IMG/VR virus record: IMGVR_UViG_2531839667_000014
Location: 1 to 36,921 of that record
Direction: 5' to 3' (one strand)
Source of the DNA: a virus
Taxonomy: Duplodnaviria > Heunggongvirae > Uroviricota > Caudoviricetes
Length of the DNA stretch: 36,921 nt
Shown here piece by piece: positions 23,010 to 33,054 of this stretch (position 1 is the stretch's first letter; each line of letters begins with the position of its first letter). The position numbers and the translations under genes are program-made. Under the pieces are notes generated by a model. It saw nothing but the letters and a program-made list of their open reading frames with translations. It did not search any database and was not told the DNA's origin.

Positions 23010-23084
<75 letters not shown>

Positions 23085-23087
23085 ATA

Positions 23088-23163
<76 letters not shown>

Positions 23164-26562: not shown

Positions 26563-26718
26563 TTACTCCTCAGGTTCGTAAGCTGTGAAGACAGCGACCT
26601 CCGTCTGTCCGGTTCGGATTCGTACCTCGCAGAGGTCTTTCCTCGTTACCAGTGCCGTCACAATGACGGTTAAACAGATGACGATCAGGGCGATTAGCAT
26701 CGCCTTTTGCTGCTTCAT
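26563..26718 (-). CDS. hok: Hok-family type I toxin (HokD/RelF-like)
   Basis: 51 aa MKQQKAMLIALIVICLTVIVTALVTRKDLCEVRIRTGQTEVAVFTAYEPEE; single TM helix; AAGGAG RBS; the track ORF is extended in frame by 19 codons. Confidence 0.9.
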   Translation of the reverse strand: MKQQKAMLIALIVICLTVIVTALVTRKDLCEVRIRTGQTEVAVFTAYEPEE

Positions 26719-27007
26719 AGCCTGCTTCTCCTTGCCTTTCGGCACGTAAGAGGCTAACCTACGTGTGCAAGTCATAGATATGGCCTCAGATTAATGTTAA
26801 GCGTCTTGCAGGACGCGTAATGTTAACTGGGGCTTTCTCTGCCTGCCTTACAGTGGCATGCCCGAGGCAGACAGCCTCAAGCACCCGCAGCAATTCTACT
26901 TAACTATCTTTCTCCCGCAAATCGTTTTTATCCCCAGCGGCAAATCGAATACACAACCAGTGCTACCGCCATTGCAATTCCTACTGTTGTGAATGCCTCA
27001 GGCCAGG

Positions 27008-31021: not shown

Positions 31022-31411
31022 ATGGACATGAGAAAAAAGCAATACGACACCCCGCTGGCAGAAAGGTTAGATACGATCTCGCAACAGCATCATTTAAGCG
31101 GTTCAGATTTAGCGCGTATCGCTGGTGTAGGTCGTTCATCAGTCAACGCATGGAAAAAAAGAGGGACAATCAGTAAAGATTCCGCAGCTAAAATTGCAGA
31201 AGCTACAAACGTTTCCCTTTCTTGGCTACTGACAGGAAAAGAAGATACAAATAGAGAGGCGCTTGATGATGATGAGAAAGCCCTGCTTGATGTTTACAGA
31301 AACCTGCCACCCGTAGAACGTAGAAATATGCTGGCAGCTTTTCAAATGCGACTTCAAAAACTGACCGAATTTTACTCAGAATACGTTGACCCAATCACAC
31401 GACAAAAATAA
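31022..31411 (+). CDS. CI/DicA-like repressor (HTH-XRE type, no peptidase domain)
   Basis: 129 aa with HTH ...LSGSDLARIAGVGRSSVNAWKKRG...; divergent from the cro-like gene; followed by a terminator and the dicB-operon promoter. Confidence 0.7.
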   Translation: MDMRKKQYDTPLAERLDTISQQHHLSGSDLARIAGVGRSSVNAWKKRGTISKDSAAKIAEATNVSLSWLLTGKEDTNREALDDDEKALLDVYRNLPPVERRNMLAAFQMRLQKLTEFYSEYVDPITRQK

Positions 31412-31466: not shown

Positions 31467-31495
31467 ATTCATAGTGTTGACATTTGTTCACCTAA
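31467..31495 (+). promoter_or_regulatory. promoter of the dicB-type operon with overlapping operator
   Basis: TTGACA (31467..31472), 17-nt spacer, AACAAT (31490..31495); operator TGTTC-N9-GAACA at 31475..31493 has the same geometry as the site in the cro-like promoter. Confidence 0.6.
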
Positions 31496-31578
31496 AGAGA
31501 ACAATGTATTCCATCAAAGTACAACGGTGCGACAGGTCTTAGTTCCGCTACCCCGGCGTTAAGGGGAAATGAGGTCAC

Positions 31579-31734
31579 ATGGATACTATCAATCTTGGCA
31601 ACAACGAATCTCTGGCATACGGTGTGTTTCCCAACCAGGACGGTACGTTCACCGCTATGACGTATACCAAAAGCAAAACGTTTAAAACCGAATCTGGCGC
31701 ACGTCGCTGGCTGGAAAGAAACTCAGGTGAGTGA
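31579..31734 (+). CDS. ydfA: small protein, YdfA-equivalent (51 aa)
   Basis: Manually found ORF MDTINLGNNESLAYGVFPNQDGTFTAMTYTKSKTFKTESGARRWLERNSGE; length and operon position match K-12 ydfA as recalled; symbol assigned by synteny. Confidence 0.55.
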   Translation: MDTINLGNNESLAYGVFPNQDGTFTAMTYTKSKTFKTESGARRWLERNSGE

Positions 31735-31893: not shown

Positions 31894-32112
31894 ATGCAGA
31901 AACGAGAACCCGTCATCATCGCGCCAGACTATACCGATGATGAACTTTATGAGTGGATGCACCAGAAAATTAAGGCAGCGCAGGACCTGAAATGGGCCAA
32001 TGAAGCCAGGGCTAAGCAGGCCGAAAATCTGTCTGCTCTGGAAAAAGATATTACCAATCTGGAAAAAGCAGCGGCATTAAGTATCGCCAGAATGATTACA
32101 TACCCGCGTTAA
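31894..32112 (+). CDS. ydfC: small protein, YdfC-equivalent (72 aa)
   Basis: 72-aa ORF with a coiled-coil-like sequence; third gene of the operon; symbol by size and synteny. Confidence 0.55.
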   Translation: MQKREPVIIAPDYTDDELYEWMHQKIKAAQDLKWANEARAKQAENLSALEKDITNLEKAAALSIARMITYPR

Positions 32113-32452
32113 TAGCTAAACAACGAAGCTAAGGTTGGTAATTAAGGAGTTCTCCACGGGTGAGGTGGAGTGCGTGCGCCGGACACGGGTGAACATCCGG
32201 CACTGACAGTTTACTGAAAGGATATTTCCCTGAAAAGTCAGACCATAACGCGAAAGCGCACGGCGAGGTAGCTGGTTCATAGATAGCCTGTCGTTAAATT
32301 TTCGTCGACCGTGCGCTTCCGGTTGTGGCAATCCGCGAAATGGCGCGGCGGTAAGTATGGCGGGGTTATTCCTTCCCCGTTGAGGACACCGGGTTGTCAG
32401 GTTGACCATACGCTTAAGTGACAACCCCGCTGCAACGCCCTCTGTTATCAAT

Positions 32453-32508
32453 TTTCTGGTGACGTTTGGCGGCATCTGTTTGCCCATGAACTGATGTCCG
32501 CCCTTTTT
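32453..32508 (+). ncRNA. dicF: DicF-like small RNA (cell-division inhibitor sRNA)
   Basis: TTTCTGGTGACGTTTGGCGG...GATGTCCGCCCTTTTT: the 5' and terminator-hairpin ends match K-12 DicF as I recall it; sits between ydfC and dicB; exact ends uncertain. Confidence 0.6.
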
Positions 32509-32677
32509 AAAGTGAATTTTGTGATGCGGTGAATGCGGCTAAGCGCACGCGGAACAGTTAAAGCTAAAAACAGTGTTATGGGTGGATTCTCTGTATCCGG
32601 CGTTAATTGTTAACTGGTTAACGTCACCTGGAGGCACCAGGCACCGCATCACAAAATTCATTGTTGAGGACGCGATA

Positions 32678-32866
32678 ATGGAAACGTTATTACCAAACGT
32701 TAATACGTCTGAAGGTTGTTTTGAAATTGGTGTCACTATCAGCAATCAGATATTTACTGAAGATGCCATTAATAAAAGAAAACACGAACAGGAACTGCTA
32801 AATAAAATATGCATTGTTTCGATGCTGGCCCGTTTACGTCTGATGCAAACAGGATGCAGGCAATGA
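32678..32866 (+). CDS. dicB: cell division inhibitor DicB
   Basis: 62 aa METLLPNVNTSEGCFEIGVTISNQIFTEDAINKRKHEQELLNKICIVSMLARLRLMQTGCRQ, near-identical to K-12 DicB from memory; GAGGA RBS; the track ORF is over-extended upstream. Confidence 0.9.
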   Translation: METLLPNVNTSEGCFEIGVTISNQIFTEDAINKRKHEQELLNKICIVSMLARLRLMQTGCRQ

Positions 32867-33054
32867 ATACGGCATTTGTACTCGTTCTGACTGTTTTTTT
32901 TGTTTCTGGTGAACCGATTGATCTTGTTATTGACATACATGACTCAATGGAAGAATGCATGACTGCCGCGGCAGAGCAAAAAATTCCCGGGAACTGTTAT
33001 CCTGTCGACAAAATTATTCGCATGAACAATAACGAAATCCCGGCAGGCCTTTAA
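32863..33054 (+). CDS. ydfD: YdfD-like small membrane protein
   Basis: 63 aa MNTAFVLVLTVFFVSGEPIDLVIDIHDSMEECMTAAAEQKIPGNCYPVDKIIRMNNNEIPAGL; ATGA overlap with the dicB stop. Confidence 0.8.
   Translation: MNTAFVLVLTVFFVSGEPIDLVIDIHDSMEECMTAAAEQKIPGNCYPVDKIIRMNNNEIPAGL

Follow-up and report, generated by a model that had tools for sequence, protein, structure and literature searches.

DicF is a textbook small RNA of prophages that links cell division, sugar metabolism and the virulence of enterohemorrhagic E. coli (EHEC). The subject of this report is a divergent allele of its gene, dicF, which lies in a stretch of 36,921 nucleotides from a virus of the Caudoviricetes (IMG/VR record IMGVR_UViG_2531839667_000014; the whole of this stretch is called the window below). 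The allele, referred to here as type B, is situated between ydfC and dicB of a Qin-like E. coli prophage. The order of genes in this segment of the operon is colinear with that of the K-12 Qin prophage, namely ydfA, ydfC, DicB, DUF1482 and an exonuclease gene. Moreover, the window over its whole length matches a lambdoid prophage, apparently a complete one, that adjoins yccA in the pig isolate DCE7, and the RefSeq record of that matching prophage carries no annotation between ydfC and dicB. The features of the locus are collected in Table 1, together with the DicF-like hairpins of the O157:H7 strain EDL933.

Table 1. Features of the dicF type-B locus in the window, and DicF-like hairpins in the EDL933 assembly NZ_CP008957.1. 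Percentages are identities to K-12.
Feature	Position	Strand	Evidence or remark
Window
CI/helix-turn-helix (HTH)-domain, DicA-like repressor gene	31022-31411		domain search
Candidate sigma-70 promoter of the ydfABC-dicF-dicB operon (TTGACA, 17 nt, AACAAT)	31477..31505	+	consensus scan only; putative
ydfA (DUF1391), first gene of the operon	31579..31734	+	Pfam DUF1391, 98 bits; open reading frame
ydfB	between ydfA and ydfC
ydfC, open reading frame of 72 amino acids; 3' untranslated region contains dicF	31894..32112	+
Gene-free stretch of 565 nt, ydfC to dicB	32113-32677
ydfC-dicF spacer, structured precursor segment upstream of the presumed RNase E-generated DicF 5' end	32113..32452	+	97.6%
Stem-loop GGGTTGTCA / TGACAACCC, 9 bp, 19-nt loop	32391..32427	+	perfect inverted repeat
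dicF type B, 51 nt to CCGCCC plus a run of five T	32453..32508	+	Rfam DicF match
Single-stranded 5' pairing region, equal to K-12 DicF nt 1-20	32453..32472	+	100%
Swapped hairpin interior CATCTGTTTGCCCATGAACTGATGT, 26 nt	32473..32498	+	46%
dicF-dicB spacer and dicB leader, structured module	32509..32677	+	97.0%
Long-range stem, 5' arm, putative RNase III site	32513..32531	+	perfect 19-bp inverted repeat with 32642-32660
Long-range stem, 3' arm, about 20 nt upstream of the dicB start codon	32642..32660	+
dicB, cell-division inhibitor	32678..32866	+	Pfam DicB, 132.5 bits; NCBIfam CellDivInhibDicB, 132.6 bits (cutoff 100)
ydfD (DUF1482)	32863..33054	+	Pfam DUF1482, 80.9 bits
Exonuclease gene, 823 amino acids	after ydfD
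EDL933
K-12-type variant, altered 5' region	1253044-1253115	-	locus L259
Type B, in a prophage adjoining ompW	1847254-1847321	-	locus L265
K-12-type, one substitution	1894270-1894339	-	locus L260
Rac-type, upstream of kilR, without DicF 5' region	2168457-2168531	+	locus L261
Identical to K-12	2345130-2345199	+	locus L262

The differences between type B and K-12 DicF cluster in the interior of the hairpin, far beyond what chance would give. Over the 565 nucleotides from ydfC to dicB, the alignment yields 97% identity to K-12 overall, and both DicF nucleotides 1-20 (20/20) and the last 10 nucleotides of DicF are 100% identical. In the hairpin interior, only 13 of 28 aligned columns agree. The first-pass annotation of this DNA, made by a model from the letters alone, had suspected that the centre departs from K-12, and the alignment bears this out, with 46% identity in the interior and 97-98% in the flanks. 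It had also recognized a DicF-like 5' end and a terminator hairpin followed by a T-run, and both are present: TTTCTGGTGACGTTTGGCGG begins at the first nucleotide of the allele, and the hairpin GGCGGCATC...GATGTCCGCC with TTTTT spans 32468 to 32508, providing a Rho-independent terminator (GGCGGCAUC...GAUGUCCGCC followed by U5). The minimum free energy of this hairpin is -17.3 kcal/mol in type B versus -15.9 kcal/mol in K-12, and its loop is exposed in the predicted fold. The conserved 5' region UUUCUGGUGACGUUUGG, the partner of xylR, is present in type B. The K-12 segment that is replaced carries ACUCCG, which pairs with the ribosome-binding site of ftsZ, and GCUCUGCC.

Searching the window with Rfam at the gathering thresholds yields only sok and two tRNAs, and no DicF match. 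With reporting by E-value, the DicF model (RF00039) matches positions 32454-32503 at 43.5 bits (E 5.3e-8 in a 1-kb search), which is below its gathering score of 48 bits; K-12 DicF scores 76.7 bits. The covariance-model scan suggested by the first-pass annotation therefore does find the family, though at a score that does not reach the threshold. By its Rfam match and by its place between ydfC and dicB, the locus holds a DicF homologue, as had been proposed; a DicF match exists, albeit a sub-gathering one, and the sequence is not identical to that of K-12.

The allele is not special to the window, as it recurs unchanged in many E. coli genomes, including that of EDL933. Of 5426 complete E. coli genomes, 290 contain the 47-nucleotide type-B hairpin region with 100% identity; most of these are of serotypes O157:H7 and O55:H7, and EDL933 and 86-24 are among them. 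The K-12-type hairpin is present in 3948. A 73-nucleotide query composed of the hairpin and the DicF 5' end recovers the same 290 genomes, at 294 places, which shows that no copy of the type-B hairpin in these genomes stands apart from the DicF 5' region. Of 120 sampled IMG/VR loci with a DicF 5' end, about 115 have a hairpin of the K-12 type, exact or with point changes, and 2 have type B; no intermediates between the two types occur among these sampled loci. Few records combine a K-12-like spacer with the type-B hairpin as the window does: only 4 are at least 99% identical over the 565 nucleotides. In strain PV15-279 of O157:H7, the DicF upstream sequence and 5' end occur together at four places; the exact K-12 hairpin follows at two of them and type B at one. 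A scan of 596 Gb of genome contigs for the pattern CTGGTGACNTTTGGCGG returned chance matches in unrelated bacteria, because its 16 specified bases are too few for a collection of that size.

This distribution also disposes of the idea that type B arose from an error of sequencing or assembly, or that it is a pseudogene in decay. Only the below-threshold Rfam score speaks for it, and it is effectively refuted by the identical 47-nucleotide and 73-nucleotide sequences in 290 independent complete genomes, by a hairpin that is more stable than that of K-12, and by changes that preserve a stem common to many prophages.

Searches of phage and E. coli records revealed related hairpins upstream of kilR/kil in Rac-like prophages and in Shiga-toxin (Stx) phages, such as Shigella phage 75/02 Stx and PhiR5_2, and in two further E. 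coli prophages, those of strain A30 (upstream of dicB) and strain M6 (upstream of kil). Hairpin alignments of 7 and 10 loci share an invariant frame, consisting of TTGGCGG(A)[C/T]ATCNGTTT, a variable loop, and CTGATGTCCGCCC TTTTT AAAGTGAATTTTGTG; the arms GGCGG(A)CATCNGTTT...CTGATGTCCGCCCTTTTTAAAGTGAATTTTGTG are common to the hairpins of Rac-like prophages, Stx phages and strains A30 and M6. Type B fits this frame, its 3' arm CTGATGTCCGCCC and 5' arm GGCGGCATC being common to the kil- and dicB-upstream hairpins of Rac-like and Stx prophages, and the K-12 hairpin (…TATCAGTTTTACTCCGTGACTGCTCTGCCGCC) is the outlier. In its hairpin, type B is of the Rac type, with the arms GGCGG(A)CATC / GATGTCCGCC, a variable loop and then TTTTTAAAGTGAATTTTGTG, but its 5' flank is DicF sequence and its downstream gene is dicB.

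The hairpins upstream of kil in Rac-like and Stx loci (Rac-SA53, PhiR5_2, Shigella 75/02 Stx and the EDL933 entry 'DicF_3') have the same frame, GGCGG(A)CATCNGTTT...CTGATGTCCGCCC TTTTT AAAGTGAATTTTGTG, and are followed by the same structured leader before a small division-inhibitor gene as in type B. They differ from it in having another 5' region (...TTGCTGTGTGTAGYC...) without the DicF pairing sequence, and in preceding kil, whereas type B precedes dicB; strain A30 is an exception, with a non-DicF 5' region and yet a position upstream of dicB. With 29.5-41.1 bits against the DicF model, the Rac-type hairpins fall likewise below the threshold, next to 43.5 bits for type B. The 5' regions ahead of the hairpin are of several unrelated types (DicF, Rac, A30 and M6), so that hairpins and 5' regions are combined in different ways.

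Single-nucleotide polymorphisms in the flanks are found within the K-12 type as well and do not separate the alleles, so that the exchanged tract comprises the hairpin interior (32473-32498) only; a longer recombination tract marked by such polymorphisms was rejected on the same grounds. Judged by these comparisons, the divergence is a discrete swap of the hairpin to the common prophage version and not gradual drift. Because most relatives share a type-B-like stem, the K-12 form may be the derived hairpin.

The functional consequences of the swap can be approached through the known division of labor in K-12 DicF. Its 3' region pairs with the ribosome-binding site of ftsZ and its 5' end with xylR, pykA requires residues of both regions, and the 3'-region mutant DicF9 has lost ftsZ repression and toxicity but retains xylR repression (PMC5069750). 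Pairing energies were calculated as the sum of hybridisation and opening energies on K-12 target leaders, using windowed ViennaRNA duplexfold and constrained-ensemble opening energies; full-length RNAduplex without accessibility was discarded, as it produced unrealistic duplexes spanning the whole RNA. In this model, xylR is bound equally well by the K-12 allele (-13.1 kcal/mol) and by type B (-13.2 kcal/mol), at the same 5'-end site, where the DicF 5' region forms a perfect 13-bp duplex with xylR +8..+20. For ftsZ, the energy changes from -7.3 kcal/mol with the K-12 allele to +0.4 kcal/mol with type B, and for pykA from -11.7 to -2.4 kcal/mol. The values for manX (-4.2 versus -1.0 kcal/mol) are weak in both alleles and uninformative.

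Controls restricted to duplexes that touch the ftsZ ribosome-binding site gave the same picture, with -8.2 for K-12, +4.9 for type B, and +2.8 to +16.2 when the DicF 5' end was combined with one of four other natural hairpins. When the K-12 hairpin interior was shuffled sixty times, the mean was +0.24 (standard deviation 4.07); none of the shuffles (0/60) reached the K-12 value, and 52/60 did at least as well as type B at this site. In this computational test, the 3'-half complementarity to the ftsZ ribosome-binding site is thus not found in type B. In 5392 of 5425 genomes the ftsZ leader shows 99% identity or more, and the target therefore does not co-vary with the allele. The target prediction proposed by the first-pass annotation has in this way been carried out with duplex and opening energies, and it has ftsZ and pykA pairing lost and xylR pairing kept. 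The expectation that changes in the seed would shift the target spectrum agrees with the predicted shift in targets; it erred as to the place of the change, since the 5' region that pairs with xylR is intact and it is the hairpin interior with the 3' arm that is altered.

Another possible partner of the unchanged 5' region is the PerC-family (pch) gene of EDL933, in which DicF nucleotides 1-19 can pair with coding-sequence positions +87..+106 (hybridisation -19.0), a site that may differ from the published pchA site. In the same gene (L259 25697-26011, minus strand), AUGGGCAAA, at approximately +66..+74, has a perfect 9-nucleotide complement in UUUGCCCAU, which is part of the type-B loop; the predicted total energy is weak (-1.2 kcal/mol).

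The sequences on either side of dicF are structured as well. The non-coding spacers (97-98%) are closer to K-12 than dicB (88.9%) and ydfD (73.3%) are, and such high conservation suggests either a constraint on RNA structure or processing or a recent exchange of the segment. The ydfC-dicF spacer folds with -124.2 kcal/mol (z = -2.3) and contains stem-loops at 32251-32263/32309-32321 and 32391-32399/32419-32427; no Rfam family matched it under E-value reporting. The latter stem-loop was picked out in the first-pass annotation and is indeed a perfect inverted repeat; it is identical in K-12, and the K-12 comparison therefore gives no information on covariation. The same annotation had placed DicF inside a long structured precursor. 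The upstream spacer is folded, as it supposed, but the strongest structure is downstream of dicF, where DicF together with the following spacer reaches z = -5.5 (-90.1 kcal/mol). This downstream module is common to dicB-type and kil-type prophage operons. The consensus structure of 12 loci that precede dicB or kil retains a closing stem (about 28 bp) together with two internal hairpins; it shows G-U changes as well as three compensatory ones, and its middle part is of variable length.

In K-12, DicF is shaped by RNase E, the terminator and RNase III; a 53-nucleotide species ends at the terminator, and a 72-nucleotide species ends about 19 nucleotides past CCGCCC (PMC5069750, PMC9438474). Counted in the window, 19 nucleotides past CCGCCC is approximately position 32522, inside the 5' arm of the 19-bp stem, and for this reason we infer that stem (32513-32531 / 32642-32660) to be the RNase III site. 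The analogy with K-12 would thus place the RNase III substrate downstream of dicF and not in the upstream stem-loops to which the earlier reading had drawn attention. Both the context of the RNase E cleavage site and the 19-bp stem are conserved in the type-B locus.

The dicF-dicB spacer also resembles STnc100 (RF02076). The match covers 32501-32710 and model positions 1-206, that is, the full length of the model, and it includes the same closing long-range stem and internal hairpins; its score of 39 bits is below the gathering score of 47, and the K-12 and kil-type leaders behave similarly (32.2-43.8 bits). STnc100 is a prophage-borne, variable family related to the PasD small RNAs of pathogenic E. 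coli (bioRxiv 10.64898/2026.05.13.724894). By their coordinates, the STnc100 copies listed for EDL933 (PMC5331693 Table 1) are several kb or more away from the listed DicF copies, and therefore apparently lie at other prophage sites.

Several further observations concern the spacers. The DicF 5' region GGTGACGTT (32458-32466) is perfectly complementary over 9 nucleotides to AACGTCACC (32620-32628) in the dicB leader, for which the chance probability is roughly 0.006. Most Rac-like loci have kept the leader sequence AACGTCACC ahead of kil, as the 3' arm of a hairpin. This complementarity could reflect pairing of DicF with dicB/kil leaders, in cis or in trans, or be a coincidence. On the plus strand, no open reading frame in the spacer exceeds 36 amino acids, and a minus-strand frame of 123 amino acids was rejected as a gene, being simply antisense to the RNA elements. 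The type-B locus of EDL933 (NZ_CP120944.1) contains a 634-bp insertion in the ydfC-dicF spacer (L002 2119-2752), which holds a hypothetical gene of 135 amino acids and an antisense open reading frame of 77 amino acids; neither is present in the window or in K-12.

As to the remaining genes of the operon, ydfC has 94.1% nucleotide identity to its K-12 counterpart and is labelled ydfC in the identical genome NZ_CP090611.1. The candidate promoter lies downstream of the DicA-like repressor gene, at the position of the K-12 operon start; promoter-like sites found by the consensus scan are not enriched relative to shuffles. Elsewhere in the window, the sok antisense RNA of a hok/sok module (RF01794, 100 bits) is found at 26713-26886 on the minus strand, where the matching genome annotates hokD. 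Prophage-borne tRNA-Gly(TCC) and tRNA-Thr(TGT) genes occupy 23010-23163 on the minus strand, with the late antiterminator gene on one side and the lysis genes on the other.

The EDL933 genome illustrates how type B relates to the catalog of known DicF copies. Its assembly holds five DicF-like hairpins (Table 1), and a published table of its non-coding RNAs has four DicF entries, of 52, 52, 56 and 52 nucleotides (PMC5331693). Matched by order, strand and length, these entries correspond to the first, third, fourth and fifth loci; the type-B locus is absent from that four-entry table, and the listed 'DicF_3' (56 nucleotides) is the Rac-type hairpin upstream of kilR, which is devoid of the DicF 5' region. 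The entry 'STnc100_10' was considered as a marker of the type-B locus of EDL933 and rejected, since its region is the Stx1 prophage. An earlier survey of dicF counted only copies that were more than 99% identical (PMC5069750). Two reviews give EHEC four dicF copies, each active when overexpressed (PMC7873438, PMC8139620). Type B seems to have escaped annotation and may be an overlooked fifth DicF-like gene in O157:H7. For these four active copies the reviews cite Melson and Kendall (2019), and type B may be among the four of that study.

The best explanation of the region is that it represents the ydfC-dicF-dicB part of a Qin-like dicBF early operon with a discrete dicF allele, in which regulation by the 5' region is probably kept and that of ftsZ and pykA probably lost; the probability of this reading is estimated at roughly 0.7. 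With the DicF of the K-12 Qin prophage (RF00039), the allele shares the locus, nucleotides 1-20, the base of the terminator, the U-run and the predicted xylR pairing, as well as near-identical spacers, which contain the putative RNase III stem and the surroundings of the RNase E site. It differs in the 26-nucleotide interior, where the ACUCCG loop and the GCUCUGCC arm have been lost, and the K-12 hairpin is slightly less stable.

By analogy with K-12, RNase E would cut the operon transcript between AAU and UUUCUGG (32452/32453), and transcription stopping at the hairpin and U5 would leave a small RNA of approximately 51-56 nucleotides. In read-through transcripts, RNase III would cleave within the 19-bp stem, thereby generating a species of about 70 nucleotides and splitting off the dicB message. 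The type-B RNA would bind Hfq, and its unchanged nucleotides 4-17 would pair with messages such as that of xylR. The model predicts that it should spare ftsZ and pykA, because it is devoid of the ACUCCG loop and the GCUCUGCC arm, and it should therefore lack the division-blocking toxicity of DicF. SroC and CpxQ are comparable in that they also derive from a coding transcript, with a terminator hairpin as 3' end and an RNase E-made 5' end (PMC9438474). To this scheme DicF adds the RNase III route to a longer species, a route that type B would presumably follow.

A more far-reaching version joins several elements: a separation-of-function, non-toxic type B, a possible fifth copy in O157:H7, the exchange of 5' and hairpin modules, and a derived K-12 hairpin. 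As a whole it is tentative, its chances being somewhat below even. Under separation of function, xylR and probably the pch site (nucleotides 1-19) may stay regulated; if the K-12 hairpin is derived, a few changes to an ordinary prophage terminator may have created the pairing with ftsZ.

Several points weigh against the preferred reading of type B as an allele that keeps 5'-region regulation and loses ftsZ and pykA. Everything functional about type B is predicted, and the energy model is home-made; its weak values for manX, a known K-12 target, mean that it misses some real interactions. A simple consensus scan for terminators did not list the type-B hairpin, because of its long loop and bulge, and under the rules of that scan (a loop of at most 8 nucleotides and an uninterrupted stem) the K-12 DicF terminator would probably be missed too. 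Evolution may have proceeded either way, with type B arising by a hairpin swap or the K-12 type from a type-B-like ancestor. Furthermore, a review reports that each of the four EHEC DicF RNAs complements a narL phenotype (PMC8139620), and divergent copies can therefore be active. Such activity would also suit a fully equivalent DicF, one that still represses ftsZ through its 5' region or the shared CCGCCC end and blocks division. Type B shares its locus, 5' end and terminator base with K-12 DicF, and its 5' region can form a weak duplex with ftsZ -23..-6 (hybridisation -11.5 kcal/mol). Equivalence is nevertheless decidedly unlikely, given that the ftsZ totals of type B (+0.4 to +4.9) are no better than those of shuffles and stand against -7.3 to -8.2 kcal/mol for K-12, that the ACUCCG loop is gone, and that the K-12 3'-region mutations DicF9 and DicF23 reduce or abolish ftsZ repression (PMC5069750).

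The kinship with kil-upstream hairpins raises a different possibility, in which the element acts in cis only, as a terminator and processing module of the early-left operon that gates read-through into the toxic dicB/kil genes and keeps its 5' end for RNase E. Rac-like and Stx prophages that have no DicF 5' region do carry the same hairpin, T-run and 19-bp stem ahead of kil, and their hairpins still score 29.5-41.1 bits against the DicF model, and the module is better conserved than the neighboring protein genes. A role confined to cis is quite unlikely, however, as the 20-nucleotide 5' region shows 100% conservation and accompanies every copy of the type-B hairpin, and the perfect 13-bp match to xylR, a validated DicF target site (PMC5069750), is kept. 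A hairpin with a U-run also resembles the usual 3' module of Hfq-binding small RNAs, and the two roles are not exclusive, K-12 DicF being both terminator and regulator. It could be argued instead that the new loop UGUUUGCCCAUGAACU has acquired new targets, so that type B gained a different regulon and did not merely lose ftsZ and pykA. The exposure of this loop in the predicted fold, its perfect 9-nucleotide match AUGGGCAAA in the pch coding sequence of EDL933 and a near-match in the dicB leader (32571-32588) fit such a gain. The predicted totals are weak (-1.2 for pch and -6.2 kcal/mol for the dicB leader), complements of the loop are not enriched in the 36.9-kb window (ten 9-mer hits after removal of self-antisense ones versus 6.0 +/- 4.5 expected), and the loops of related hairpins vary freely, which suggests weak constraint. 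A gained regulon is accordingly unlikely.

The DicF family is long known, and the allele is common in well-studied strains; what is new is that pairing with ftsZ and pykA is predicted to be lost, that 5' region and hairpin combine in modular fashion, and that the annotation is missing. Type B is a modest variant that leaves the general picture of DicF unchanged and refines that of a well-known regulator. Its carriers make up about 5% of complete E. coli genomes, the main O157:H7 reference strains among them. Since type B is missed when copies are counted by the Rfam threshold or by high-identity BLAST, strains in which multiple dicF copies have been deleted may retain a DicF-type 5' pairing region. 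If type B indeed keeps 5' pairing without ftsZ and pykA, DicF copies within one strain would differ in function, and the target specificity of a small RNA can reside in, and be swapped with, its terminator hairpin.

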